64,000 nt of DNA from Yuukianura sp. NJ FZ-2021 (lineage: Eukaryota). Shown piece after piece: positions 17,902 to 47,769 of the stretch. The stretch is taken from the NCBI GenBank assembly GCA_046563655.1, contig CM102288.1, forward strand, positions 6,262,001 through 6,326,000, written 5' to 3'. Each line of letters opens with the position of its first letter. The stretch's first letter is position 1. Position numbers and translations under genes: made by a program. Under the pieces are notes generated by a model. That model did not search any database, had not been told where the DNA came from, and saw only the letters and a list, made by a program, of their open reading frames with translations.

Positions 17902-20711
<2,810 letters not shown>

Positions 20712-21249: not shown

Positions 21250-24319
<3,070 letters not shown>

Positions 24320-28674: not shown

Positions 28675-29915
28675 ATGGTTATGCCTAAAGCATTCAACAC
28701 GGTGACCTTGGTGTTGAGTGTTGCCTCGCTCTGGGCTCTCTCCAATTCTGGTTCAATTCACTTTCAAGACTGTGGTAACATATGCACTTCTTAAAAAAAT
28801 TCAAACAAAAAAAAAAAACTTGTGAAAAAAAAAACTTGACACTACACTAAAGAAAAGGCCTTTTAAAGTTTGTCATAGTTGGCGTCAGAAACTTTAGAAT
28901 CTGCTTAATCAGTTGCTAAATTTACTTCACAAAAGATGAATTGCTGGTGGAAAAGTACAGAAAAGTTGACAAAAATTTAGACTTTTTGGCTGGCAAAATG
29001 ACGCAGGCAATTTATCTGGTCAAACCTGATTGGCGGATTTTGAAAGAAAAAATTAAGAAATTTGAAATGGAACAGGATTTATGTAATTTTTGTAATTTAT
29101 GTAATTGGTAAATGATGTAATTGCAGGTTCGACTGCAAATATTACTGAGATGCGAGTGACAGGCTGCTCCAGTCCGCCTTGCATCTTCCTCAAGGGCAAA
29201 CCATATGAAATTGAAATTGATGCAATTTCAAGTAAGTAAAGCTTACATGCAACACCCTACATAATTATGTAAGGTTACATTATTGTAACTTACATTTTAT
29301 GCATAATGTCTGCATTATGTCTGTAATGATGTATAGATTGCCACAGTGCCAAGTTGCCGTACAGAGTGACTGCAAAACTGCTGTTTCCGTTTACAATTTT
29401 GAAGGGAGATGCCTGTACGGTTCTTAGCCGAGGAAATTGTCCTGTAACTGCTGGAGCAGAATTTACTTACAAAAATCACATCAACATCAGCAGCAGTTAC
29501 CCATCAGTAAGTCCATTACCGTAAATCAACTTGTACTAAAAATCAATTTACTTACCCTTGGCTTTAAACTTGGAGTTTTACGGTGACACAGTCCATTTCA
29601 CACGCGGTTTGTGACTTTATGTTGTGCATTTCTGTATAACCTTGGTTAAATTTACAGGAAATGACGCTTTTTCCTAAAATATTTACATAAACTAATTTTC
29701 AAAAACAGTCGTTGTGAAAAGAAAACAGAAAAAAAGTAGCGGATAAATTAATCGTTATGAGAAATCTAATGAAGTTTGTTATTTTTCCTGTTTAGTTTCA
29801 CACTAAAGTGAAGGCATTGGTTCAAGATGACGCCGGAGAGAGCGTCATCTGCATCATTCTGGACGTGCGCATTATGAAGAAGATGGCCAAAAGGAAACAA
29901 TGGACTCTGATCTGA
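28675..29915 (+). CDS. NPC2: NPC2/MD-2-related lipid-recognition (ML) domain protein, 4 exons
   Basis: Spliced model: signal peptide, FQDCG|STANITEMRVTGCSSPPCIFLKGKPY..., DAC...NCPVTAGAEFTY...SSYPS|...DDAGESVIC. This is the six-Cys ML pattern. Family-level call; orthology is not established. Confidence 0.85.
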
Positions 29916-30277
29916 TTCTGCACATGACAACACCGTTTGTGACTCCACTGGCAACAAATAATGCAACTGCTCATGCGTATTCATCAAAATTTTGAAATTG
30001 TTTCACTCAAGTACTAAATAAATTGTTTTCCATATCTCTTGTGTTATCTTTCTCGTTTTATCTTCAAAACCGTCATTTCAAATTAGGTGAACTTCAAAAT
30101 CCTCTTGCAAATTCCACTTAATACAAAAATTTTAGTTTCCGAGTCAGAATTTTGAGAGCAAGGTTTTAAAAGTCTGAAATTTTAGAACTTTTAAGAAATT
30201 TTGGAATTTTCTTAAAAAGTGAATTTTGAACTCTACAATTTTTTTTTAGTTTTTTTGTGTCTGATTTTGATTCAAAA

Positions 30278-32511
30278 ATGATTGTTGAGCGTTTAATTTT
30301 GGTTTCGGGGGAAAGTGAGACTGAGTTGAAAAAAGAACTGGAGAATTTGAAACTAGCTGCGACAGAAGATGGTGCCAGTATGGAAGGAATTTTGCGGAAG
30401 TACAATACGCATGAGCACAAATCCTTCCGGGCGGCCATCCGAGCAGATTCACTGGACCAATTGATTAAGAATCTTGCTGAGGGAAATTTTCGTACTGCGC
30501 AGGCCCCTGCACAGCCTCCGTCCGTGGGTTTCATGTTCAGTGCTCAAGGCAGCCAGTATTTCGGAATGCTAAGGCCACTCTACGACAGTTTTCCAGTCTT
30601 CAGACATTCTTTGGACAAGTATGAAGATCTTGTGAAGAAAGTGACTGGAGAGGGATTCAAAGAAGGGATTTGGGAGAAGGATAATTTCTGGATTGTGCAC
30701 AGCCAGGCAGTGTTTGTGTGTCTTCAGATGGCGCTGGTTGACCTCTGGAGGTCATTTGGGGTCATTCCCCAAGTAGTCATGGGTCACAGGTCAAACAACT
30801 TATTTTAAAAATTTAGATTTTGTTTTGGAATTTTAATATTCATAGGAACGGAAGTTTCCAGACTTTTGCACTATTTAGATCATTTTTTAGAATAACCAGA
30901 ATGCTACGTATGCGTGCCAGGGCTTCGCCCCAGACATACATACCCATTCGTCTTATTTTCCTGACTTTTTCCAAAAGTCCTTCTGTAGAAAGTTAGAAGG
31001 TGTGATGCTGTTCTTAAAAATCTATGCTTTGGAATTTTTTAAATTTCCATAAAAAAGGAAAATGCACTGAAGTGAATTTGCTACTCTTATCCTGACTTTT
31101 TCCAAAAGTCCTTCTGTAGAAAGTTAGAAGGTGTGATGATGTTTTTAAAAATCAATACTTTGGAATTTTTTAAATTTCCATAAAAAAGGAAAATGCACTG
31201 AAGTGAATTTGCTACTCTTATCCTGACTTTTTCCAAAAGTCCTTCTGTAGAAAGTTAGAAGGTGTGATGATGTTTTTAAAAATCAATACTTTGGAATTTT
31301 TTAAATTTCCATAAAAAAGGAAAATGCACTGTAGTGAATTTGTTAGCCTAATCCTGACTTTTCCCAAAAATCCTTCTGTAGAAAGTTCAAAGGTGTGATG
31401 TTGTTTTAGGAAAACATATTTTAGAATTTTTTAAATTTCTCATGAATAAGGAAAGTCCACTTTTGTTTCCAAAAGTATACTCTAGAAAGTTAGGAGGTTC
31501 ATGATGGCGCTTTGAAAAATAGAATATCTTGTAAATACTTTCAATTTTGCTTGAATGAGGTCGATACATTTAAAAGAATTTTAGCCCAAACGTGACTTAA
31601 TTTTCATGCAAAATTTTGAGAGTAAACAAGTGGATTACTAACTATTCCGGAATTACTTTGTACATGTAACTTGTCGTTTATTTATCATTGGAGTTAATTT
31701 GTTTGTTGCTTAATCAGTTTCGGAGAATTCGGAGCTGCCGTGTACGCTGGAGCGATGACGCTGGAAGACGCTGTGGCTGCAGCCAATGATCGCTTTCGTC
31801 TCATCCGAACAACTGGACCAGCAGCAATGATGGGCATAGGAGGTTCAGAGGAGGTGAGATTTAGCACAGATTCTGAAGATTTTAATTTTTGAAAAACTCA
31901 AAATCTTGAAATTTTAAATTTGACTGCAGGAAGTGAATCGACTGATGGCGGAATTTGAAAAAACGGCAAAAGATGCCGATGATTGGCTGGACGTCTGTGC
32001 GGTCAATTCTCCCGAGGAAGTGCTCGTATCTGGGCCCAAGAAACGAGTAGAAGCTTTTGAGAAAGTTTGCATCTTAGCAGGACTGAAAACGCGTCCGACG
32101 GAATCTCCGTTTGCATTTCACTCGAGGGCAATGGATCCCATCATGGCCGAATTTGCACAAAGTATGAACCGAGTGAAATATTCAGAAACACTCAGTTGTT
32201 CGTATATTTCTGCCACTTACGGAAGAGAAGTGGAGAGTGAAGAATTAAATGCCGACTATTGGCTCAAACACCTCAGGCAAACTATGCACTGCGGAAAAGC
32301 TGTAGTTGAAATCTGGAAAAAAGCTAAGATCTTAATAGAAATCGGGCCGAGAGAGATTTTAGTGCACAAAGCTCGGGAAAACATTCGGATCACGACGAAA
32401 GATGAAGAAAATGGACTCATTTTGGCATCAGTCAAGAGACAAGATCCCAACTGCTTCTATGAAAATTTAGCACAACTTTTTCTACAAGGAATCAACATAA
32501 AACTCAGCTAA
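30278..32511 (+). CDS. Stand-alone PKS-type acyltransferase (KS-AT linker + AT + post-AT linker), 3 exons, 409 aa
   Basis: Exons 30278-30789, 31718-31853 and 31930-32511 join in frame (1230 nt). Motifs are FMFSAQGSQYFGM, GH|SFGE (catalytic Ser codon split by intron 1), AVNSP, FAFHS, YWLKHLRQ and IEIGP. No KS or ACP in the gene. Confidence 0.88.
30960..31480. repeat. Tandem repeat, 131-bp unit x~4, in acyltransferase intron 1
   Basis: ctgactttt recurs at 30961, 31092, 31223 and 31354. Confidence 0.9.
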
Positions 32512-33001
32512 AAAGTGTAAAACTAAATTTAATTTTAAAAATTGCTGTAAAAATTCATAAGTAGACTAAATGAAGAAACAAGTTTGATATTTCAAATTTT
32601 TTGAGTTGACTGGATTAAGGTGATCCGTTATCCGGATGCCGACTTCTGAATTTTTACATTTTTGGTGAATTGTGACTGGACTCTTTTCTGAATTTCATTT
32701 TGGAAATTGATTTTTTTTTTGCAAAGTGTTGAGTATGAGTTTTGTCAAAATTTTTAAATTGGTGTCAAAGTTTTCCTTGCTCTTAAATAAAAAAATAAAA
32801 TCTGACTTTGACAACGCCTCTTTTGGTTTCTGTTTCATGGAATTATGAATTTTTTTTTTCAAATGAAGTTGGGAAGTTGTGGTTGACTTCCTGTTTTTCT
32901 TTTAAATTCTAACCGCAAAAACCATTTTTCTTTAATTTTCCTCCAAGTTTATTCTAAAATGCAAATAACTTCTAATAATGAAACTGATTAATTGAAAATG
33001 A

Positions 33002-33941
33002 TTAATTGGCTCTGACTCTGGACATAGAAGCGACCAGGGCAAAAATGGATGTTGCCATGGCAACGACGGTTGCCATGGGGCTGATGACGAGGCCAGTGGC
33101 TGCATTGCAGCCATCTACGGTGCAGCACAGGAAACAACCTGTTTTGGATTTCTGTTCTTCCGTGCATGGTTTGTCACAGGGTGGGTCCTCTTTGTCTTTT
33201 CGGTACTCGCAGAATCGCACAATCTGAGAAAAGTTGGCTAAAAAAGGAGAAATCAGAAAAAAAATTTAAAAAACTGAAAATTGAATTTTTTTTAATTTTG
33301 GTTTTTGAAATTACCTGGTTGCTGGCGGAGCCACTCCTTGTTGGTGGATTCCTTGTGGAGCACTTCCTTCATGCATTTGAGCGTGTATCCTGGCTGCTCC
33401 TGCCAGCCATACTCGTGTCGCTGGCTGGGAGCAGGAGCTGGAATTATTTTATAGTAGTAAAGCTATATATCTGTATGATTGAAATAATTATTTTATTTAT
33501 ATAATTATGTTATATAAACTAACGTGCTCCTTGTGCCTGTGCCTGACCCTGCTCCTGGTTGATGTTGTAGGGTGAGTGTGGGTTGAATTTGTTGTCGTTC
33601 CAGCGTTCGTCCATCCACTCGTTCTTGAGTGCCCTCATGGCGCCGACATCGCACTCTTTCGGCTTAATATACTCCGAGTATTTTTCTGGATAGCGACACC
33701 ACTCCTCCTTTGTCCCATCTTTTTGATCCGCAGTGTTGCAAATGTAGCACTTCAGACCCAGCGACTCTGAAAACAAACAATTGTATACTATTTAAATAAT
33801 ATAAATAATATCATTAATAGAATATAAATAATATAAATTTCTAACATAACTTCAACAATTTAAACAATTTTTAGAAAACTTACGTTGGACGGTAGCGACG
33901 AGAACTACGAGCAAAATGGCGGAGATTCTGAGCTTGCCCAT
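33002..33941 (-). CDS. Ly6/uPAR (three-finger, quiver-like) GPI-anchored protein, 4 exons
   Basis: Signal MGKLRISAILLVVLVATVQ, then LKCYIC...C...C...CMKE...RFC...C...C...CFLCCTVDGCN and a hydrophobic GPI-type tail. Exons splice in frame using the acceptor at ~33238. Confidence 0.82.
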
Positions 33942-34762
33942 TTCGATCTAGACAAAAACCAAATTTGTACTGAGCAAAAAGCTTCGTATACAAATCAAAA
34001 TGAAAACTGCTGGGCAAAAAGGTTCCTGTACTAGCAAAAAAAAACTCCCTGTACGATGCAAAGTGATTTATTACTGGGCAAAATGCTTCGTCTACGACGC
34101 AAAATGGTTCTACTATTAAGGAAAAACTTTTCTTTACGTTGATCAACGGGTGTAGTACTGGGCGAAAAGCTTCCTCTACGAAGCAAAATGGTTGTTGTAC
34201 TGAGCAGAAAGCTTCCTTTGCACGCTAATTTAGTTTAGTTGGAGACTAATTTGGAAAATTAGTTTACCTGATTGGCGTTTTGTGATTCGTGCTTGGTGTG
34301 TTGTGGTTGTTGTAAATTTGCTGTTTGTGGGAACACCGTGGGAAAAACCGTGTTTTCTGGTGGACCGTGGAAACAGGAGTGTCTATCGTCACGATACTTT
34401 CTTTACACTTGGATTGGACGGGAAGTGGATGGATCGGAGGAAACAGTGGTAAGATGCCCGTCATTTCCGCTGGCTCCAGGAAAAGTCAAACAGCAAGTGG
34501 AGGAAATCAAAACCAAAATTTCACTTCCAAAATAGTTACCAAATTCGTAGAAATCGGCTGATAGCGTCAAAATTTTTGAAAGAAAAAAAATGCGAAACTT
34601 AATTCAATGAAAAACGAACGAAGGTACTTTGCAAAAGTTCACGAAACATTGAATTTAATTCGATTAAAATGACATAAAATTATGTTGTGCAAGACTATCG
34701 GCTTACATACTATGTAAGGTTAATGTAAAATTTTAAGTTTTATGTAATAATTTGGTTAGTAT

Positions 34763-37700
34763 TTACTTCAGTCGTATGATTCTGTCCAAGTTATCTCTAA
34801 AATGCTGCTGAAATAATTCAATATCTTGCCGACCTCTGAATTCGACTCGAGCGATGCCATCTTCAATGCGAACAGTCGTCAGTACTTTTGTGGCTGGCAG
34901 TATTGGCCACCCTCCGTGGATACTGCGAAGTATGTACTTGGCTCCTCCCACTTCAAACTCCTCTCTCCGAGGAGCGGAGTCAACGACAAAATCAAATAGG
35001 AATTGAACAGAGTCATGCTCCACCAATCGATGAACTCCTCCAGCCGAAGCCACGCCCATGTCAATCGGAAACAGCAAGTTGGCCTTTGATTTTTTCACAT
35101 CGGCAGCAACTTTTCTGATCACTTTCTCAATTGACCCGTCTCGGCCAAGGTCAAAGGTCAATGGAATCACTTGAGTAAGGTTTCCAAGTAGTTCATACAG
35201 TTGCGGATGGTCTCTGAGTGACAGAAAAGTTCCCACGGTGACCTCTTCGTCAGGGTCAATGACTTTTTCTGTCATAACTTGACCTGATAAAAACAAATCG
35301 TAGAGACTCACGCCAAATCGAGACGCGAAACTCCTCAAAGACTCTAATTCGTCTGCGGTTAAAGTTATCCACGACGTGAAAAATTCCTCGCTCGTGATTG
35401 GCCCAGAATTTGTGGAAATTTTCGGGGGCAAGTTGAAACTTTGTTTCCAAAAGGTCAAGAGGTCATTGATCTCGTCGTCTTTGTGGAAATTCTTTTGATA
35501 AAAAGCAAAATCAGCATAGTTTATGATTTCTGTATTAAAATCTTCGTGCAGACGGAGGAGTTCTTGGACAAAAATGGACTGTGCAGAGTAGTCCATCGCA
35601 ATGGAATGTGACACGACCAAAATTTTTTGAATTTTCCCGCTTTCAGTTTCGAAGAGACCAACCCTAAGTGGTATTTGAACAGACAGGTCAAATTCTGTTT
35701 GAACAAAATCTTGAACAGCTTCTGTGCAGTTTTTAAAAAGTTGAACTGGCATCTCCACGGATTCCAAAATTTTCTGGATTTTCGTCCCAAATCGACTTTT
35801 TGGATAAACCGTTCTTAAAATTACGTGTTTTTCAACAAGTGCAGAAATTCGGACTAAAAATGGTTCCAAATTTTCCCCGCCTGAAATTTCAAATTCGAAA
35901 ACCACGTTATGGTGATGCCTTTGGCGGGAAACCAAAATTCTCTCTTGCGAAGTTGACAGTGGAGCTTCTTTCAAATTTGGTCTTTTTGGAATTTTGTCAT
36001 AATTTTTGTCTGATGTTGTTTGAATTTCTGTAGATGTCAAGAAACTTTCAAAACTGCCTCCACTTTCCATGACCTTTGCAGGATTGACCTCGAGGTCAAG
36101 TTTTTGAAACAAAAGGTTAATGACCTTGATTGCCAACAAACTGTTGCCTCCGAGGCTAAAAAAGTTGCTTGTAAGGTCAACCGAATTCGGCGGGAGGCAG
36201 AGAACGTCTTCCCAAATTTGAGCAACGACGAGTTCCTCAGAAGATTTTGGCGGGTTTTCCAAATTTTGTGGAGTTTGGTTCAAATTTGGAGCCGATTTTT
36301 TGGAAATGTTTGAATTTGGAGGTGAAATTTCTTGAAGCTGCGTTCGATCAATTTTTCCATTTGGGGTAAGCGGGAATTTCGAAAGGCAGATGAGTGTTGT
36401 AGGAATCATGTACTCGGGAATGTTCAATTTCAAAAATTGGCGAACTTTTTTTGTTAAATTTTCCCGCTCAAGATGAGTGCTAGCGACGTTGGATTTTGGA
36501 ACGAAGAATCCAAGTAGTTGATTCCCCTCCTTCAACGTTTTTGAAATTACAACTGAAAATAATTTTTGATACAAAAAATATAAAACTAAATTATTTTTCA
36601 AAATTTTATGCTTTCGAAATTACCCGCTCTGGAAATTTCCGGTACTTTGAGCATAGTGGTTTCCACTTCCAAAACTTCGATTCGAATTCCACGGACTTTG
36701 ACTTGCAAATCCTTTCTGCCTAAAATTTGAATTTTCCCATCCACTTCTACTCCGAAATCTCCAGTTCGGTACAATCTCCCCCAAATTTCCGGTACGTTGA
36801 AACTGTTTCCCGGTTCGGTCAAAGTGTTTCCCGGGTTTTTCAAAAACGGATTCTTTAGAAACTTTTGTTTAGTTAAATTTTCGTTTTTCAAGTACCCCCG
36901 GGCCAGTCCTGCTCCGCTCAAACAAATTTCTCCAATCGCCCCAGGCGGAACCGGCTTCAAGTCGTTGCTTAGCAACAAAACTTTCTTGTTTGCCACGGTT
37001 CTGTCGAAACTGAAACTCCGCCCACTCGTGACATCCGCTGTTAAGCTGCACATCGTCCCTTCACTGTTTCCATACACATTGTAAATTTTTACATTTGGAT
37101 TGTGCCTTAAAAAAGTAGAGTGGTGCGCAGACGTTAAGGGTTCCCCACCTACGGCGATTCTTTTTAACTTCCTGAGTCTGTGCAGATCGAACTGTGCAAC
37201 AAGAGATGGCGTTCCATCAATATGAGTCACTTGGTTTAACTCAAAGTAGTCCAGAAGGGCCTTGGGTTGCATGAGAAGGTCAAAGGGCACCATGACAAGG
37301 GTCAGCCCTTGAGAAATTGACAATGTTAAGGGCTCCAGAAAAGCGGCAAAGGCGTAGTTGAAGAGCTGCACAACGACTTCGTCTCGAGAGAGATCGGGAT
37401 ATCGAAGAGGGTAGTCGAGACACTGATTGACGACAGCTGATTGGCGGAGCATAACTCCTTTCGGGGTTCCCGTCGTTCCCGAAGTGTAGACCACGAGGGC
37501 AAGGTCGTTGACCTCAGATTTGCTGACCTGCGTAAGATTGCTGACATCTGACGTGCTGACCTGATTAGGATTGCAGACCTGCAGGTCAAACGATGAAATG
37601 TCAATGACTGGACATGACATTTGTGGTAGTTTGGATTTTGATGCTTTGTCTGTCAATAGAGCAATCGGCTGACAGTCGTCCAGAATCAACTGAATTCTGT

Positions 37701-38655
37701 TTGGCGGGTAGTTCGGATCGATCGGAACATAGGCTCCGCCCACTTTCCAGATTCCGAGGATTCCAAAGATGATGAGTTCAGTTCTGTCCAGGCAGAGGGC
37801 AATCAGAGCGTCTGATCGGAACTGAACTTTTGATCGGATGTGATCAGCAATTTGATTGGCTCTTTGATGGATTTGAGCGTAAGTGAACTTCCGATCGCCA
37901 GCTACCAATCCAATTTTGTTTGGAATGCGTCGTACAGTTGAGTCAAACAACTCCGACATGTTTTTGAATTCGGATTTCGGATTTTGAGTTGTCTCGGGAA
38001 AATTTATTGTGTCTGGAGTGAATTTGAGTTTTTCTAGCGGGAGTTCCTGGAAATTCAAAATTTGGTCCAAAATCAACTGTGCAGTGACAGCAAGTTGGGA
38101 CAAGGTGACGTGACCTTGACTTCCTTCCTGGCCGTTGCCTGAGTAGACGAGGTCAAAGGTCAAGCAGTCCGTAAGTTCTGTCACGACTACTTTCAAAGCT
38201 GGTTCCATGTTGAAATTTTCTATTTCCGAGTTCGATTTTTCGAATTTTGATTCTTCTTTGCCTTTGAACTCGAAAATGACGTCAAATAGCCCAATTTCGG
38301 CTGGAGTCAAAGCACAGGAGGCACATTTGAATTTTTTGGCTCCATTTTTAAATTTTTCCAAAATTTCAGTTTTCCCGGGAAAATCATGGTTCATAAAATG
38401 AGCCAATCCAAGTGCTTGGTAGTAAAGTACTGTGGTGTCAGCGTAGCAGTAGACGTGAAGGAGTTGATGCACGACGCCAACAAAAATTTCGTCGTACGCG
38501 ACGCCGTTTTCCAAAAATTCACGAAATTTAGTTTTTTGAATTGAGAATCTCGCGGCGTCCGGGGTTTTCCCGAGGCTTTCCCGAATGTCCTGACGATCTT
38601 CCAGATTTTCAACAAACTTCCGCATGCAATTTCTAGCACAAAGTTCAGAAGCCAT
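34763..38655 (-). CDS. Single-module non-ribosomal peptide synthetase (partial C - A - T - C), 2 exons, 1273 aa
   Basis: Two ORFs are joined by a 71-nt GT-AG intron (36553-36623). A-domain cores: FTYAQI, KVGGAYVPID, YTSGTTGTPKG, NVYGNSE, GEICLSGAGLARGY, YRTGD, GRKDLQVKVRGIRIE, PEYMIP, NGKIDR. PCP motif FFSLGGNSL. C-terminal condensation-like domain: APLSTSQER, HVILRT, HSIAMD, YADFA. Confidence 0.92.
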
Positions 38656-39162
38656 TTCAGATTTTGAAAAATTCCCGTTGTATCAAATTTTGAATAGGTT
38701 TTCAAAAATTTCAAAGAATTTTGAAAACGATTTGAGTCGAGGAGAAGGAAGTGGTGATTGGTTGAGTAAGTTTTGAATTGGAGTGAATCATAAGTTTTAT
38801 AATTTGGGGAAAAGCGTAACAATTCTTCTCATTTCTCCATTCAAATTGTCGTTAAGATTGTCGGGATTCCCGGAAAATTTTGATTGGCTGCTGGATCAAT
38901 CCGGATTTCGAAATTAATTTTAAATTGACATTTTCTTAATTCTTGTGACGGTTGTTGTTATTCATTTGAAATGGATTGAAAATGAGCAGTTAGCTCTAAT
39001 TGCCTTTTAACAACGTCGTTAACTTCAAATTCAAAAGTGTGGAGAGTGACCTCAGTCTCCTCAGGTCACATTCACACAAACTTCAACATTCAAAACACAA
39101 CTCACTTCAAAGTATCTCAATTTCACTGAAGAAAGTTAATCAGACCTCATTCCACAAAAAAA
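38656..39162. promoter_or_regulatory. Putative bidirectional promoter region between the NRPS and the GT8-PKS
   Basis: The two start codons are head-to-head, about 0.5 kb apart. An Inr-like tcagtc is at ~39052. This is positional inference only. Confidence 0.45.
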
Positions 39163-42100
39163 ATGAAAGGTAAAGAAGTAGCGAATGTTGTTTTTCTTTT
39201 GGGAATTTTTTAATACAATATATGTTAAAAAATTAATTGTAATAAAATTTTCGTTTTTAGTTTACATGTGTGTCTCTAAGTAGTGAAAGCTACTTTGGGT
39301 ATCGAAATTGTCATGTCTGTCCGTCTGTCTGTCTGTGTGTTGCCTTGTTTATTCTGTCTAAATTTTTGTGTATATATTTAATTAATTTCAATTTATTTAA
39401 ATATATTATATGTTTTTAGCAGGAGAGAAGGAGTCGTGGGTGACGGTGGTTCTGGATGATCGTATGGGATGGGAAGCATTGGTTCTTGCTGCATCCATTA
39501 AACGGCATCTCACACTGCGCAAACTCACTGTTCTCATCGAAACTCAAAAAGTTTCTGGAAAAATGCAGTACGAATTCAGAAATAATCAAAGATGATAAGA
39601 TTAAAACAAAGTTTAAAATAAATTTTTATTATATTTTATTATATGAATATGTTTTTAGAGAAATGTTGAGAGGAGCTTTCGACTACGTCGAGACTCTACA
39701 GAATGCGAGTGTTGTGTATGGCGGAAAAGAACATTTGAACGACAAGTTCTGGAAGAGACATCTCTGGAGTCTGCTGCTCTGGAAGAAGTGCGTCTTCATC
39801 GCTTCAGATTCACTCGTAAACTACTTTGACATAAACTTAGATTCTAAACTTTTGTTTTTGAATTTCAGTTTTTGGATTTTGAACTTTAGGTTTTGGAGTC
39901 AATTGAAGATTTGTTTGACCTGGACGAGTTTTCTGCTCCTACTGTTAGAGTTGGCGCGCAACAAGGAATGTCGGTTGACTTGTTTGTTTTTCAACCGAAC
40001 AGAGAAACACTCAAAGCACTAAGTGCCAAATCCAAATTTGGTATTACCGATGTAGTATCATAATCAGAATGAAAAATGTTTTTCTTTTAAAATTTAAAGG
40101 AAATTTTGAAACTGAAATTTGAAATTTTGAAATCAGGTGACGATGCAATTCTGAAGCATTTTTGGAAAACTTGGACAGCTACTGCAACAAAGAAAATCAA
40201 GGACGGAGTGGTCTTCCCTCTGTTGTCTCAGCAGAGCCATCTACAGTAACTAAAAAACGTTTTCAAAAAACGAAAAAAATTTAAAAAAGATTTGTTTTTC
40301 TAAAATTTGCAGTTGTCAACAGCCAAGAGTTGTTCAGTTTGGGCAAAAGCCTTGGACACACAAAACGTATGCTGGAAAGTGGTGCCAAATTTTAGCAGAG
40401 GACGTACTGCCACAACTTCAGTCTTGTGAGGTAAAGAAGTATTTTAAAAGTTATGTTAAAAATTAACAAATTTTTTCAAAATTTTAAAGTTTTTGAAATT
40501 TTGAAAATTTTGTGCTTTAACAGCTCCTGGAATTCCTGGAAACGTCGTCCAAGGAGCTTGGCATTCCACTTTCGAAAGCGATGTCCAGCACTGTAACTGT
40601 GAATATGGCTGAAAACTGGTCAGACTGCATTGCAGTTGTGGGCATGAGTTGTCGGTTTCCTGGAGCCAACTCAGTTCAAGAGTACTGGAACCTCCTCGTG
40701 GACGGAAGATCCGCCATCCGTCCATTTCCGGATGGACGAAGGACGTTTGAAGCCGTCGGAATCCGGAAGGACGTCGCAGGATTTCTGTCCTGCGCAGTGG
40801 ACGAGTTTGATGCTAAATTCTTTGGAATCAGTCCGCGAGAGGCACCACTGCTCGATCCTCAGCAACGACATCTTCTGGAAGTCATTTGGGAGTCACTGGA
40901 AGATGCAGGTATGCCATTGGCTCTTGAAGCAAATCCAGCTTTCTGATTGGCTGTTGAAGTAAATCCAGCCTTCTGATTGGTTATTTTTAGGCATCGATGG
41001 ATCACTGCTGAAAGAAACACCCACTGGCGTTTTTGTTGGCGTTTTGACGCAGGATTACGACCGAATGCTTCCGAGAAACGGCTATATCGGAAACGAGTAC
41101 CACCATCGCTTTCTTGGAAACGCAATCAGCGCTATCGCTGGAAGAATTTCGTTTTTTCTGGGATTAACTGGGCCAAACATGGCAGTTGAATCTGGTTAGT
41201 AGTATAAATTCACTACAATAATGTGCATGGCCAAAGAAAAACGGCGGTTTTATTTTTAAAAAATCTCACTTTACCCCAAATGTCGCTCAAATTCTAAAAA
41301 CAATAGTTGAAACAACAGGTTATATTTAAAACAATAGCTAAAACTTGAAACAATAATTCGTTCTTTTTTGTAAATCAGGCTGCTCCTCGTCCCTGGCAGC
41401 TCTCCATCTTGGCTGTCAGAGTCTGCGAAGTGGTGAGTCCAACTTGGTGATTAGCGGTGGAGTTAACTTGATTATCATTCCACGCAACTCCTCCGTCGCT
41501 GGAACTGACGCTGGAGAAACTTTGAAAAAAGACGCTGATGGTTTCATCTCTGGTGAGGGTGTGGCTACAATTGTGCTTAAGCGTTACGCAGACGCTGTCA
41601 GAGATGGAGACAAAATTCGAGCCATAGTTCGTGGTTCTGCGATTGGAAACGACGGAGGAATGATCAGTGGCGGCACGGCTTCTGCTGATGAACAAGTTCG
41701 TGTGTACCGTGAAGCTTTAGAAAATTCGCATGTGCTGCCGGAGGAAATTTCATATGTTGAAACACACGGCCCTGACGAGACGGAGGTGACGGCCCTGAAC
41801 GAAGTTTACTCAAAAACGAACAGAGCAGAACCGCTTCTGATTGGTTCCGTCAAACCGAACATCGGATACTGTGAGTCTGCTGGAGGAATTGCATCAATTA
41901 TCAAACTGATTTTGGCCTTTGAGCGGGAAACTATTCCAAAGAATTTGAATTTTCAAAATTCAAATTTGCCACTTCAAGAATTCAAAATCAAAATTCCGGC
42001 TACAAATTTACCCTGGGGTGGAAACAAGCGACTCGCTGCAACGAGTTCGTTTAGCACTACCGGAACACTGGTACACTTCATCCTACAATCCGCGGACAAA

Positions 42101-44935
42101 ATGCCGGCTGAAACAGTAACGGCGGACAAAATGCCGGCTGAAACACTACCACCCAAAACAGAACCACAGCTTGTTCTAATCTCAGCTAAAACGCCGGAAG
42201 CTCTTGAAGCCCAACTGAAGAATTATGAAAACTTTTTTGAAAAAAATCGCGATTGGCCCCTGGACGAAATTGCTTTTGCGACGAATCTTTGCCGAACGCA
42301 TTTCTCCCACCGAGTGGCCGTTTTTGCCGAAAACACTGCCGATTTAATTCAAAAACTAAAATCAAAAGATTTTACCAGTACCGGGAAAGTTTCAAATTCA
42401 AATTCAAAACTGCCGCCAATTGGATTTCTCTTTACTGGACAATTCACGCAATATTTGGGAATGGCTAAAGGCCTGTACTCACTTTTCACGTCGTTTCGCG
42501 AAACGCTTGACTACTGCTCAGAAGTGTATCAGCGTTTAAGCGGTTTTTCGCTTTTGCAAATCATGTTTGAGGACGAAACAAAATTGCGGGAAACCGAATT
42601 CTCGCAACCAGCGATTTTCTGTGTTCAAATTTCTCTTGTTAAGCTATGGGCCCATTTCGGAATTCAGCCTTCGGTTGTTCTCGGTTCAAGTCTTGGAGAG
42701 TACGCAGCCGCAGTAGCTGCTGACGTCATGAGCATCGAAGACGGCTTGCGATTGGTCGTTGGACGGAGTCAGTTGGCCAATCAGATGAAGCCAGGCAGAA
42801 TGCTGGCCGTGAAGGGGTCATTGACCTTGGTTGAAAAAATGCTGGCGGAGGTCAACTTGACTGAAACTTTGGACATCGCTGCAGTGAATTCACCAACTCA
42901 AATAATTTTAGCTGGACCACCAGAGGCTGTGGAAGCATTTGAAAAATGCTGCGCAGAAAGAGAAATAAAGACACACCGTTTGGCTTCTGCGCAGGCCTTC
43001 CACTCTAAAGATATTGAAGACATTCTGGATGAGTTTGGTGAAATTGCACAGAGTATTCAGTACAATTCTCCGACTTGTACTTACATTTCTTCCACTCTCG
43101 CCAGACGACTGATTCCCGAAGACTTCCGAGCAGAGTACTGGCAGTGCCATCTACGAGATCCAATTCAATTCTCTAAAGCAGTTTCACTTTTGACGAATTC
43201 CACTCAAATTTTGATCGAAATCGGACCACAACCGGTTCTACTAGGTCTTGCAATGGCCAATTACGGACTCCATTCAAATCAAAATCAAAGTCAAAATGAG
43301 GCAAAAAGTCAAAATCAACGTCAAAATGAGGCAAAAAGTCAAAATCAGCTCGTGTGTTGCCCATCTATGCGCCGAGTTGAAGAGAATTCTTACACTTTCT
43401 ACACAGCTTTGGCCAAACTCCACGTTTCAGGAATTCCAATTGACTGGAAATCCCATTTTGCGGGAAAATCAAAAAATTTGAAATTACCGCTCTACCCGTT
43501 TCAGCGCCAAAAATTTTGGTTTGTTCTGTCCGACTACACGGATGAAGAAGACGACAAAGATCGTGACGGGATTTTCATCAGCGCAGAACGAATCCACCCA
43601 ATTCTGGGCTACAAAATTCCAACTCCCGGCAGAATTCATTTTGCCCAATCAAAACTCCTCAAAGAATTGCCCTACTTCAACCATTGTACAATGGCTAATG
43701 CTCCGTTTCTAACTGCTGGTGGGGTCATTGAACTGTTTCTGGCAGCAGCCAATCAGAAGCGACGACAGTTAGCAACAGCCAATCAGAAACTGCAACTCAA
43801 AAGCATTCACTTCTGTGACTATTTGCGATTGGACAAAGACACAACTATTCACACTTTGATTGACGACTCACTTGTGACTTTGTATGAACAAACAAACGGA
43901 TCGTGGAACGTCATCGCAAAAATGGAAATTCCGCCGGAAAAAGAAGAAAAAAATACAATTGGATTTGAAAAGAGTCGTGATTGGCTGAAACGAGAAATGG
44001 AGGATTCTGATTGGTTGAACAAATCTGTGGAATTGGAAGTTACAGACTTTTATGAATCTGAACCTGAAGTTTATTTTGGAAACCATTACAGAAGAATTAA
44101 AAAATTGCGAAAATTTGAAGACGGAACAATTTTAGGAGAGTTGTGCACTTTTGTGCAAGATCCGGCGATTCTGGGTCAAAGGTCATCGACATACATAGCC
44201 TTCCCTACAGTTTTAGATTCCATGCTCCATTGTGCCTTGCTAGCACAGAACTGCACAGGAACAGTTTGTCTTCCAAAGAAAATCCACGCTATCACGTGGT
44301 TCGGAAAAACCGCGAATTCGTCCGAACTGGTCGTCAGAGCAGATAAAACTGGTGTTTCTCTTAGCTCGAGATCTGGCGACATTTTGGCGACCATTGAGGG
44401 TGTCGAATTCCCTGAAAAGTCGGATGAGCAGATCAGAGAAAACAGGAATTTGTCAACTACTGCAACTCCTGATAAAAAGTCAATGGCCTCTGCTGAAATC
44501 CAGGGTCAAAGGTCAATGACCTTTGACCTCGGCGATTCTCACATCACCATGGAAGATTTAAAGGACGAGAGACTGCGTATTCTGGCTGAAATTCTTGCAC
44601 GACCATCGGCGAAACCAACCGCTGCTCCTGACCGGAGTTACGACATTGTCGAAAAACCGCTGGAAATGTCGCAGAAAAGTGATCCAGGAGAAGAAATGTC
44701 GCTGGAATCGCTTGAAAAAAGACTGGAAAAGTTGGTGAGACAAACGCTGCGACTTCCGGAGGGAGAGATGCTGGACATGGACCAGAACTTGGCAGAGATT
44801 GGAGTGGACTCTCTGATGGGTCTGGAGATTGGCACGAAGATCCAGGACTGGATTCAGCACAAGCAAATTCCACCGACCATCGTCCAGGAATTTCCCACCA
44901 TCCGCACACTTTTGGCTGCACTCACGCAACAATAG
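39163..44935 (+). CDS. Glycogenin-like GT8 domain fused to a type I PKS module (GT8-KS-AT-DH-ACP), 9 exons, about 1611 aa
   Basis: Exons 39163-39169, 39420-39567, 39659-39815, 39890-40040, 40137-40245, 40313-40430, 40524-40908, 40991-41194 and 41379-44935 total 4836 nt, with all GT-AG phases compatible. GT8 part: SWVTVV...ALVLAASIK...RKLTVL, KCVFIASDSL|VLESIEDLF, FVFQP, GDDAIL, VVQFGQKPW. KS: IAVVGMSCRFPGA, LDPQQR, ESG|CSSSL. AT: GSSLGE, AFHS. DH: HPILG, PTVLD. ACP: GVDSL. Confidence 0.85.
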
Positions 44936-45789
44936 TTTTCAAAAAAAATTGCACCTTCAAAAACTTTAAATCCATTATAATACTAAGAAAATATGGGGTT
45001 GATTTGTGTGTCTCGAAGGCGTATTTCTTTGACCGATTGGTAATGCAATGAATTCATTATAATTTTTTTCAAACCAAAATCAAAAAAGCTTGGTTTCTTA
45101 TTCGGGTTCCTCCAAAGTTTAAAAAAAAATTTAAAAATCTGAAACAAAATCTGCAATTGTGCAATTTGTAACTCGGTTGACCTAATTCAGAATCTGTTGA
45201 CCCCGACTTGACTTGGACACATGGTTTTTGAAGTGAGCATGTCACATTCTGCTCGTTTGTATTTGTAAATTGGTTTTGTTGACATGATCAAAAGACTGTG
45301 AATGAGCGTCATTGTTTCTGCAAATGGAAACAACACTTTCTTCCTGGGTCGTGTGTGTGTCTTGACAAAGTTTCCGAAAGATTAGTCAATCCACTTGTCC
45401 ACTTGAGTCAAGATGAGCCGACTGGTGACCTTTGACCTGGAACTAGTCACAAGTTGACCTCACAAGGAACAGGATCCAGGCGGTTCCTTTCCATTTTTCA
45501 TCAATTACTTCTGACGCATATCTGCTTGGAAGTTCACTTTTTCTACGTTTCTACACAAGGGAAACTCACAGCATAACTTTTATAGTTCTCAAATTTTGAA
45601 ATTTTTCACAATCTTCAATTCAGTTTTTAAAAATGTTCAAATGTAGGTCCTCTAATTTTATTTTTACACATTCGTGAAACGTCAAAATCTCGATTTAACA
45701 CAAAATCTACAAATCTGGCTCAAAATCTCGACCAAACGCAGAAGTCAAGCTTTGTCTCAAAATCAAAATCTCAAAATTTTTAAGGAAGA

Positions 45790-47769
45790 ATGGAGCAATC
45801 TCTGGTGGAATCGCTCCCACTTCTGGGGAATTCCAGAAGGTTGAGCGTAGCCCACGAGCGACCGTCGACTCTGAAGCGATTTGGCGGAATCCTATTGGCT
45901 CTCGTGGCGACATTCGTCTACTCCCTGGCGACATTGATTCTGAAGACTTTCAGTTCCTACCATCCGTTTTCTGTGAGTCTGTGGAGATTCCAGGGCATGA
46001 TCATCCCCTCTGTCCCTGTCATTCTCTTCTACGCATGTCTCCCATCCACCAATCAAAATGGATATGCAAAAACATTTGGAATTGGACCAGGAGCTCACAA
46101 ACTACGCACCAACATCAACATTATTCTACTCATCTGCGTAACAAAACTTCTCAAAACTCAAAATTTCAGAACACAAAAAAAATTCAGAATCTTTTTGTAA
46201 TCTTTCTCAAATTTTCCATTTCTTGTTGTAGGTTCGTTCAGTGGTGGGATGTTCGAGCACAGTTTTTCAGATTTACGCAGTGGATCGGCTCAGTTTGGCC
46301 GATGCATCGGTGATCGTGTTCAGTTGTCCAGTGTTTGTGACTTTGTTTGCACACTGTTTCCTGGGTGAGAAGACTGGCTGGGGATCGGTGCTAATCGCCA
46401 TCTTGACTTTTTCTGGAGTCGTCATCATCGCTAGACCACCGATCCTCACTGGACAAAGCGCCATGGACAAAAATACGCTCGTAAGTTAAACCTCCTAATG
46501 CAACAGAAATTTTCTGATCACGTGTGAAATTTTGAAATTTTCCGACCACTTGTGAAAATGAAATTTTCCGACTACAGTGGATTCTCTAAATAAGGGACAG
46601 GAGCTCCTCCTCTTTCTCACTTTCACTCGAAGTCGCGGTACCGTAAAGTTTTAATTTTGGAGGGAACGTATGTTTCAGTTTATCGGCTTATTTTTGTTAC
46701 AAACTGCGCAACAGCGCACAAACTGCGCAACAGCGCACAAACTGCGCAACAGCGCACAAACTGCGCAACAGCGCACAAACTGCGCAACAGCGCACACTTC
46801 GAAACAGGAAATTTTCATTAGAATGGTGTTCCTAGCCTTAAATTCCATATAACTGACCGTTTACCAGAAATCTTACGGTACTGGGGGAGGCGCCTACTAC
46901 CAATCCTCCAATCGTGATTTTTTCCCTTATTTAGAGAATCCACTGTACTTGTGAAAATTTGAAATTTTCCGACCACTTCTGAAAATGAAATTTTCAAAGA
47001 AACTCGTCCAGAAAGTTTAGAAAATCTTCAACAAACGACAGAAAATCGACTACAGAAAATCGTCGGTTGGGTGGAGATTTTAAAGAGAATTTTGTGTTTT
47101 TTAGGAAGGGATCCTGTTTGCCGTGGCTTCCATGCTCACAGCGACTGTTGTGATTTTGATTTTGCGTTTTCTGCGTGACGTGCACTACTCCGTCGTCACA
47201 ATTTCCTACGGTGTGATTGGCTCTATTGAGTGCCTCATTTTGGCAACTTTTCACGGCGTGCTTGACCATCCGCACGGAACGCACGAATGGACTCTCGTGT
47301 TGGGCTTGATACTCTTCACTTTCCTCGGACAAACACTACTAATCTTGTCACTCAAACTGGAAGAAGCTGGTCCAGTAAGTACTGCACAATTAAAGTGCTA
47401 AAAATCAATGAAATTCAATGAATTCACGGAAACTCATGATTTTTAACTTCACTCAAACTCTTGACTTTGAAATTCAAAGAAACTATTTGTGATTTTTGTT
47501 GAAGGTGTCTCTGTTGCAGTCTACTGACGTTATTTTCAGTTTTATTTTGCAATACATCTTTCTCGATATTTCACCGGATAAATACAGGTAAGCCTAACTA
47601 AAAAAAAACACCAGAAAATTTTGAAACTTTCAAAAAAAAAAATACGAAAATTGAGAAAATATTTCAATTAACGTAACCTTGAATGATTTTTAGTATGGTT
47701 GGTGCTTCTATTGTGATACTGGGAGTGAGTCTAACTACACTGCGCAAATGGCTCACTACTCAAAACTGA
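45790..47769 (+). CDS. EamA/DMT-superfamily transporter (SLC35G-like), multi-exon
   Basis: Two EamA repeats with about 10 hydrophobic helices: 'SLWRFQG', 'YAVDRLSLADASVIVFSCPVFVTLFAHCFLGEK', 'GVVIIARP', 'GQTLLILSLKLEEAGP|VSLLQSTDVIFSFILQ'. Stop TGA at 47767-47769. Confidence 0.88.
46575..46945. mobile_element. TA-flanked MITE (Tc1/mariner/pogo-type) in a transporter intron, with an internal 19-bp minisatellite
   Basis: TA|cagtggattctctaaataaggga ... tcccttatttagagaatccactg|TA gives perfect 23-bp TIRs. caaactgcgcaacagcgca x5 at ~46700-46796. Confidence 0.85.

Follow-up and report, generated by a model that had tools for sequence, protein, structure and literature searches.

Results

Gene content of the locus

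The stretch analyzed here, called the window throughout, is 64,000 nucleotides of contig CM102288.1 from Yuukianura sp. NJ FZ-2021 (GenBank assembly GCA_046563655.1, positions 6,262,001 to 6,326,000). Four intact spliced genes of bacterial natural-product type were found between window positions 30278 and 47769: a free-standing acyltransferase (AT), a nonribosomal peptide synthetase (NRPS) with adenylation (A), carrier (T) and condensation (C) domains, a polyketide synthase (PKS) in which a glycogenin-like GT8 part precedes ketosynthase (KS), AT, dehydratase (DH) and acyl carrier protein (ACP) domains, and an EamA/DMT transporter (Table 1). For the gene models, GT/AG pairs that kept an open frame were listed, and the pairs restoring conserved motifs were chosen. 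All 14 introns of the four genes were of the GT-AG type, and their GC content was 15-31% in 11 of the 13 measured and 40% in the other two. An earlier sequence-only reading had claimed an AT, an NRPS with a PKS head-to-head to it and an EamA gene, all with spliceosomal introns and intact frames. The Pfam domains and the spliced models bear this out, and the limits which that reading had given coincide exactly with the start codon of the AT gene (30278) and the stop codon of the EamA gene (47769).

In the Pfam scan of open reading frames (ORFs), Acyl_transf_1 was found on the plus strand in ORFs 30230-30808 and 31924-32511, and ORF 31698-31889 covered positions 91-134 of the same profile. On the minus strand, AMP-binding was found in ORF 36598-38682 (E 8e-66), and AMP-binding_C, PP-binding and Condensation (E 9e-26) in ORF 34763-36619. 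Of the PKS, the N-terminal part of the KS (ketoacyl-synt) was found in ORF 40521-40946 (+), and the C-terminal part of the KS, Acyl_transf_1 (E 2.5e-54), DH and PP-binding in a frame of 1192 codons (41357-44935, +). EamA was found in ORF 46232-46489. No Pfam match to a ketoreductase (KR), enoylreductase (ER), thioesterase (TE) or reductase domain was obtained in 59 further ORFs of at least 50 aa between 30 and 48 kb, in 93 ORFs of at least 55 aa from 14.5-30.2 and 48.3-54.3 kb, or in 30 ORFs of at least 110 aa elsewhere, in agreement with the absence of these domains noted earlier. Across the whole window (1-64000), no match reached the gathering score of an Rfam family.

Table 1. Genes, exons, domains and intergenic features of the locus, in window positions
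Feature	Position	Strand	Description	Basis
Free-standing AT gene	30278-32511	+	3 exons, 409 aa, no internal stop
AT exon 1	30278..30789	+	Start, N-terminus like a KS-AT linker, AT up to Gly-His of GHSFGE; donor 30790	Pfam profile 2-90
AT exon 2	31718..31853	+	Completes the GHSFGE nucleophile motif; junction 30790/31717 reads ..VVMGH^SFGEF..	Pfam profile 91-134
AT exon 3	31930..32511	+	FAFHS, post-AT linker, stop; junction 31854/31929	Pfam profile 136-316
Small Cys-rich ORFs	33002-33265, 33519-33791	-	Between the AT and NRPS genes; 'Ly6' of the sequence-only reading
NRPS gene (A-T-C)	38655-34763	-	2 exons, 1273 aa, no internal stop
NRPS exon 1	36624..38655	-	Start, C-domain vestige and C-A linker (~225 aa), A domain to motif A8	Pfam (E 8e-66), LgrA alignment
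A domain	~36889-37947	-	Within NRPS exon 1	Pfam, motifs
NRPS intron	36553-36623	-	71 nt	Splice model
NRPS exon 2	34763..36552	-	A9-A10, carrier (~36065-36226), C domain (~35078-35971), stop	Pfam
Divergent intergenic region	38656..39409	.	754 bp between the start codons of the NRPS (38655, -) and the GT8-PKS (39410, +)
GT8-PKS gene (GT8-KS-AT-DH-ACP)	39410-44935	+	8 exons, 1612 aa, no internal stop
Five glycogenin-like GT8 exons	39410-39567, 39659-39815, 39890-40040, 40137-40245, 40313-40430	+		Splice models
Linker and KS N-terminal exons	40524-40908, 40991-41194	+	Junctions 40431/40523 (in frame), 40909/40990, 41195/41378	Pfam ketoacyl-synt
Large PKS exon	41379..44935	+	KS Cys to KS C-terminus, KS-AT linker, AT, DH, ACP, stop	Pfam, motif comparison
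Domains in large PKS exon	AT ~42425-43436, DH ~43595-44366, ACP ~44720-44924	+		Pfam
EamA transporter gene	45790-47769	+	5 exons, 341 aa, no internal stop
EamA/DMT transporter exons	45790-46137, 46232-46480, 47105-47374, 47505-47587, 47694-47769	+		Pfam on three exons (E 1e-10, 9e-5, 1e-3)

A eukaryotic family of GT8-fused PKSs

When metagenome contigs were scanned with the PKS exon, two loci were returned, L001 and L002, and in both the coding blocks were separated by short stop-bearing stretches resembling introns. L001 was modelled as nine exons without a stop, in the order glycogenin-like exons, KS, AT, DH, methyltransferase (MT) and ER, after which the contig ends; L002 also runs into the methyltransferase. 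The window PKS and L001 were 52.6% identical in the KS (430 aa), 41% in the linker and AT and 23.6% in the DH, and the GT8 part plus linker was 31% identical over 219 aa (E 1e-23). When the region from the KS C-terminal part to the AT was analyzed with FastTree, the window PKS, L001 and L002 formed a clade with support of 1.0 among 124 bacterial segments. This eukaryotic clade was nested within bacterial modular segments, the next two nodes having support of 0.94-0.97. In the window PKS and L001, the first and second GT8 introns agree exactly in residue and phase, and GT8 intron 3 has the same phase and lies within one residue; of the four KS/AT introns, none is common to both. L001 resembles the window PKS in its glycogenin-like N-terminal exons, its pre-KS linker and an unusual ESGCSS active-site context, and reads IGHCE where the window PKS reads IGYCE. 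Both L001 and L002 differ from it in retaining NIGH, GHSVGE and GQGSQ; the HGTGT motif is kept in L001 and was seen in L002.

These findings indicate that the window PKS is a member of an intron-bearing eukaryotic family of GT8-fused PKSs, the fuller members of which carry MT and ER domains. They likewise indicate that it is a trimmed paralogue (GT8-KS-AT-DH-ACP) of the fuller GT8-KS-AT-DH-MT-ER members; the MT and ER of its relatives are absent from the window PKS, in which no remnant of them was detected.

When GT8 exons 1, 2 and 3 were each compared with 177,635 PDB sequences, the best match was glycogenin-1, with weak scores (E 0.004, 0.19 and 0.32, respectively), and the matched residues of glycogenin-1 were collinear (5-45, 78-107 and 108-150). 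Pfam gave nothing on single GT8 exons. The GT8 assignment of the sequence-only reading was thus upheld for exons 1-3 and not for exons 4 and 5, for which no glycogenin match was found in PDB. As to the fusion, the L001 exon carrying the KS motif has no ATG between its acceptor and that motif, and so has to be joined to the GT8 exons by splicing, and the L001 linker resembles the stretch of the window PKS from the acceptor at 40523 to an internal ATG at ~40581. Because of these two observations, we now regard a true GT8-PKS fusion in the window gene as probable; apart from L001, the evidence for it is the in-frame consensus splice. The DxD metal-binding motif is not intact, since the DAD of glycogenin aligns with ASD in the window gene and with DSK in L001, and for this reason the GT8 domain probably does not function as a transferase. 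Our guess is that it serves a structural or dimerizing purpose.

Catalytic residues of the PKS

KS, AT and ACP domains lie on one polypeptide in the 1612-aa model, as in a type I PKS. The references for residue changes were 60 bacterial matches together with L001 and L002; L002 is gapped at the HGTGT loop, so that of these two loci L001 alone served there. The Cys-His-His catalytic triad of the KS was found to be incomplete: the Cys and the first His are kept and NIGH is changed to NIGY. In addition, EAHGTGTxLGDPIE is changed to ETHGP-----DETE, so that five residues of the HGTGT loop are gone. In the cis-AT, GHS is changed to GSS (GSSLGE) and GQGSQ to GQFTQ, with the Ser, the Arg and AFHS kept. 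The His and Asp of the DH and the Ser of the ACP are kept, and the DH aligned with only 2 of 120 matches. The window PKS keeps 93 of 119 highly conserved columns versus 107 of 119 in L001. Because L001 keeps the canonical forms and L002 keeps NIGH and the AT motifs, the KS and cis-AT changes are taken to be specific to the window copy. The KS, cis-AT, A and GT8 domains thus all depart from the catalytic consensus, which had gone unnoticed in the sequence-only reading and does not agree with a standard PKS.

L002 has an apparent intron at ~430-560, after HGTGTxxG and before DPIE, a position matching the five-residue loss at window position ~42260; imprecise intron loss as the origin of the KS loop deletion is speculation. 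Frame-preserving tandem duplications were also present in the PKS linkers (+ strand) at 42092-42138 (15 nt x 3.1) and 43279-43347 (30 nt x 2.3, 97% identity), adding repeated peptide units to the KS-AT and post-AT linkers, respectively, and both look young. The DH-like domain was also considered as part of a fungal non-reducing PKS (KS-AT-PT-ACP), and this was rejected since the nearest relatives run into MT and ER and the linkers are of the bacterial modular type.

The free-standing acyltransferase

The free-standing AT has the canonical GHSFGE and FAFHS motifs and carries both the KS-AT and the post-AT linkers of a PKS module. Its best BLAST scores were to L001 (259 bits), L002 (220) and the cis-AT of the window (214), and the best bacterial score was 182. 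In the tree it fell in the eukaryotic AT clade with support of 0.999, and a tree without L001 and L002 gave an SH-aLRT value of 99. The module linkers, the order of the best matches and the clade support together indicate that it is an AT excised from the GT8-PKS family and not a bacterial trans-AT. The term trans-AT used in the sequence-only reading therefore does not apply: the PKS has its own AT, and the discrete AT groups with the cis-ATs of the GT8-PKS clade. Since every canonical motif is kept, the free-standing AT probably loads the ACP in trans. Intron 1 of this gene contains a tandem repeat of 131 bp x 3.8 with 93% identity (30959-31461).

The NRPS

The A, T and C domains of the NRPS were found with core motifs present, namely A3, A7, A8 and the A10 Lys of the A domain and the Ser of GGNS in the T domain. 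Residues ~122-225 aligned with the end of the C domain and the C-A linker of LgrA, and no Pfam match was obtained in residues 1-245; because of these two results, the NRPS has the appearance of a (C-tail)-A-T-C piece cut out of a bacterial gene with several modules. In amino-acid-activating A domains, Asp235 binds the alpha-amino group of the substrate, as seen in the GrsA structure. Aligned with 71 bacterial A domains, the window NRPS has FA in place of the FD motif, and two LgrA alignments put Phe or Ala at the Asp235 site, neither of them placing an Asp there. Since the equivalent of Asp235 is missing, the substrate of the A domain is more likely to be a carboxylic acid that lacks an alpha-amino group than an ordinary amino acid. 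For the C domain, the best match was that of LgrA (E 9e-14), which is of the ordinary elongation type. The divergent NRPS and PKS genes are presumed to share a promoter in the 754 bp that separate their start codons.

Bacterial affinity

The named matches among the best 120 listed for the large PKS exon were all bacterial, with 26-38% identity, in a protein search that covered lengths of 655-2086 aa, GT8-PKS relatives of ~2,600 aa lying outside this range. Likewise, the named matches among the best 120 listed for the A-domain exon were all bacterial with at most 37% identity, in a search that covered 372-1185 aa, with an NRPS of ~1,270 aa lying outside it. When the NRPS was compared with 1.84 billion representatives, the best 150 were giant multimodular bacterial NRPSs with at most 36% identity, in a ranking by summed domains in which a single-module orthologue of 40-60% identity could stand below the best 150. 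Of the best five rows of the Atlas search, four were clusters for which taxa are recorded, three of them bacterial and one (rank 4) fungal, and rank 5 had no recorded taxa. KS-AT linker families of the bacterial modular type, CurL-like and RhiE-like, were found in the PKS by the Pfam scan. In the tree of the KS C-terminal part to the AT, the nearest bacterial neighbors were P0052, P0026 and P0112, and no specific bacterial sister was found in the KS tree. The trees were made with FastTree or with a short IQ-TREE search.

Host, flanking genes and repeats

Around the locus, Pfam identified a receptor with fn3 and Tyr-kinase domains, TRAPPC10, two GH1 genes, an ML domain, a thioredoxin, ERH and Slo2. 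One Slo2 exon was 87% identical to Orchesella dallaii, 85% to O. cincta and 83% to Folsomia candida, versus approximately 80-82% to insects, so that on this single exon the window is most likely collembolan. GC at third codon positions (GC3) was 0.44-0.46 in the cluster genes and 0.48-0.57 in the flanks. The codon-usage correlation between the cluster genes and the pooled flanks was 0.73-0.87, comparable to that of the flanks with one another.

Of the flanking animal genes named earlier, the Tyr-kinase receptor, TRAPPC10, ERH and Slo2 were recovered by Pfam, and the Ly6 gene was not: the Cys-rich ORFs of 33002..33791 had no UPAR_LY6 match at E<=1, a Cys-rich motif being all that is visible. 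This Cys-rich gene is outside the biosynthetic set. Between it and the NRPS stop codon lies an open frame of 114 codons without a Pfam match, which holds a degenerate tandem repeat of 42 nt x 4.3 (34039-34217). The interval from TRAPPC10 to the cluster contains two tandem GH1 (beta-glucosidase) copies, both on the minus strand (18900-20340 and 22670-24040), with Pfam E values of 4e-32 and 1e-33 on the corresponding exons, and an exon of an ML-domain (NPC2/Der p 2-like lipid-binding) protein lies directly upstream of the AT gene (29330-29521, +; Pfam E 3e-6).

The EamA/DMT gene claimed earlier is present according to Pfam, and what links it to the pathway is adjacency alone. The Atlas search with an EamA exon gave mixed taxa. 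Intron 2 of this gene contains a perfect repeat of 19 bp x 5.2 (46699-46796).

Discussion

The locus is genuine animal DNA, most likely of a springtail, and on balance, with some reserve, we favor the view that its genes of bacterial type have been resident in the host lineage long enough for introns and host codon usage to be acquired. The nearest relatives lie outside animals, the genes are linked to host genes, and introns and host-like composition are present, all of which suggests a horizontal origin. The earlier claim that microbial-type domains were acquired and then intronized agrees with the bacterial matches and the introns; it needs amendment for the PKS, which belongs to an intron-bearing eukaryotic clade and is not a private acquisition. 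A more far-reaching and doubtful proposal is that the GT8-PKSs are an undescribed collembolan family, which arose from a bacterial PKS and a host glycogenin paralogue and diversified, and that the locus encodes a pathway assembled within the genome for an acyl amide or ester used in defense or signaling. In the same speculative vein, and with the chances again against it, the trimmed PKS with a re-purposed, non-decarboxylating KS, the excised sister AT and the acid-activating A-T-C enzyme would form a new pathway of two synthetases.

A mechanism can be outlined, which as a whole is tentative and may well be wrong. The A-T unit would load a carboxylic acid, and the KS cysteine would take the acid over into the PKS module. 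Malonyl would be put on the ACP by the free-standing AT with its canonical motifs, possibly aided by the cis-AT, and one extension at most would follow. Without a KR or TE, the C domain would free the product as an amide or ester, which the neighboring EamA protein may export. The complementation of the cis-AT by the free-standing AT, the substrate class, the joint pathway and the export are all inferred. The locus as predicted is not a standard assembly line.

Several observations weigh against this interpretation. With respect to the chemistry, a KS that is without its second His and five residues of the loop may be unable to extend a chain at all, and there is no KR to supply a substrate for the DH. 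The HHxxxDG motif of the C domain reads SHSIAMD, so that its first His is a Ser, and as this domain stands after the T domain, its donor would be the acyl group bound to the NRPS's own T domain. With respect to the genes, the cluster is interrupted by the Cys-rich gene, and GT8 exons 4 and 5 gave no glycogenin match. The fusion stands on the in-frame consensus splice and the homology to L001, and the internal ATG at ~40581 would permit a separate PKS. With respect to origin, the evidence from L001 and L002 reaches a eukaryotic family and not an animal family, the springtail assignment is based on a single Slo2 exon, and the trees were quick ones in which the springtail sequences form long branches of deviant composition.

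The alternative that survives best is that the four genes are neighbors without a common pathway, the PKS and AT being local paralogues, the NRPS a separate acquisition and the EamA gene a host transporter, so that their clustering would reflect local duplication or a region tolerant of insertions. We consider this possible but doubtful. The AT and PKS do belong to one family, the Cys-rich gene separates the AT from the NRPS, the domain logic matches no canonical hybrid order, and the transporter is tied to the rest by adjacency, its Atlas matches being of mixed taxa. It would leave unexplained, however, that no more than 754 bp separate the divergent starts of the NRPS and the PKS, a layout fit for shared regulation, that a canonical AT adjoins a PKS with an atypical cis-AT, and that all the carrier-protein-dependent enzymes of the window fall within 15 kb.

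The altered residues raise the further question of whether the locus is a decaying relic, in which acquired or duplicated genes have lost their function and are becoming pseudogenes, and we judge this unlikely. Catalytic or highly conserved residues are altered in the KS, cis-AT, A and GT8 domains, the MT, ER and KR that are at least partly present in L001 are missing, and 80-82% of the bacterially conserved columns are kept versus a bacterial median of 97-98%. These signs of decay are opposed by frames of 1612, 1273, 409 and 341 codons without a stop and by canonical splice sites in 14 of 14 introns. The fully host-like codon usage implies long residence, during which a neutral frame would have broken, and the young linker duplications, with periods of 15 and 30 nt, preserve the frame. 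Moreover, many functional residues are kept: the KS Cys and first His, the Ser, Arg and His of the AT, the His and Asp of the DH, the Ser of both carriers, the A core motifs, and the His and Asp of the C domain.

Vertical descent from an old eukaryotic stock of PKS and NRPS genes, lost in most animals, is distinctly improbable. It would fit the existence of eukaryotic relatives that bear introns, have the GT8 fusion as well and agree with the window PKS in intron positions, the bacterial identity of only 26-38% and the fact that no specific bacterial KS sister could be named. However, the eukaryotic clade falls inside a group of segments from bacterial modular PKSs (0.94-0.97), and no animal, fungal or protist protein was among the best 120 listed for the PKS exon or the A exon in a database that includes animal proteomes. 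The CurL-like and RhiE-like linkers of bacterial modular PKSs are present, and the C-domain vestige at the start of the NRPS is as expected of a piece from a multimodular bacterial gene. Finally, microbial contamination or a chimeric join, to which the bacterial type of the domains might point, is very unlikely because of the 14 spliceosomal introns in four genes, GC and codon usage like those of the flanks, and animal genes on both sides with one inside the cluster, to which are added the lack of any bacterial protein closer than 38% identity and the recovery of 23-59% of sampled words of the stretch in four DNA runs from two studies; the argument already made against contamination in the sequence-only reading was therefore sound.

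The locus offers a compact case in which two carrier-dependent synthetases lie on a 754-bp divergent region together with a spare AT and a transporter. It also brings to light a PKS family with a host-type glycogenin fold on a bacterial-type synthase, which would be an example of an acquired gene reshaped, once inside a eukaryote, through fusion of exons, loss of domains and duplication. Should both the degenerate KS and the A domain without Asp turn out to be active, their chemistry would go beyond the textbook rules of assembly lines. Many biosynthetic genes of bacterial type are known from springtails, and to our knowledge none other than the beta-lactam genes has been tied to a product.

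Comparison with known systems

The bacterial cis-AT modular type I PKSs, such as the KS-AT-DH-ACP match P0062, have the same domain order and linker families as the window PKS, at 26-38% identity. Compared with these bacterial modules, the window PKS has introns, the GT8 fusion, host codon usage and a KS without the second His. In enzymes of the Ebony and Sm-NRPS type, the C-terminal domain joins an activated acid to a free nucleophile. These single-module amide synthetases of animals, as presented in the accessible part of PMC10531068, likewise consist of one A-T unit followed by a C-terminal domain. The window NRPS differs from them in that its C-terminal domain is a true Condensation domain of the bacterial type and its A domain lacks Asp235, and there was no sign of orthology.

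The NRP/PKS clusters of bdelloid rotifers, according to the accessible text of PMC11258130, are similarly animal-encoded, horizontally acquired and diverged, and have been proposed to serve in defense. They belong to an unrelated phylum and are described in that text as multimodular, subtelomeric and induced by pathogens.

A further comparison is with springtails. For F. candida, the available part of PMC5490193 reports 36 antiSMASH clusters (30 type I PKS, 3 NRPS) and an ACVS-IPNS beta-lactam cluster, and springtail PKS/NRPS genes of bacterial type are also treated in the accessible parts of PMC10531068 and PMC10764717. The earlier remark that such clusters are rare in animals is thus correct in general and does not hold for springtails (PMC5490193, as far as accessible). 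As in the window, the bacterial-type PKS/NRPS genes of F. candida are situated among host genes of a collembolan genome, are read as horizontal transfers and are physically clustered (PMC5490193, same part). The window comes from another species (Slo2 identity of 83%), and in the accessible text of PMC5490193, which allows comparison by description only, no GT8 fusion, no pairing of A-T-C with KS-AT-DH-ACP and no catalytic-site changes are described. Literature searches gave no relevant mention of a glycogenin/GT8-PKS fusion, and for springtail PKS-NRPS hybrids they gave general papers only. The kind of locus is therefore known, since bacterial-type PKS/NRPS clusters in springtails have been published, and what appears new in comparison is the family with the GT8 fusion, the AT excised from it, the degeneracy of the KS and the pairing with an A-T-C enzyme that lacks the Asp.

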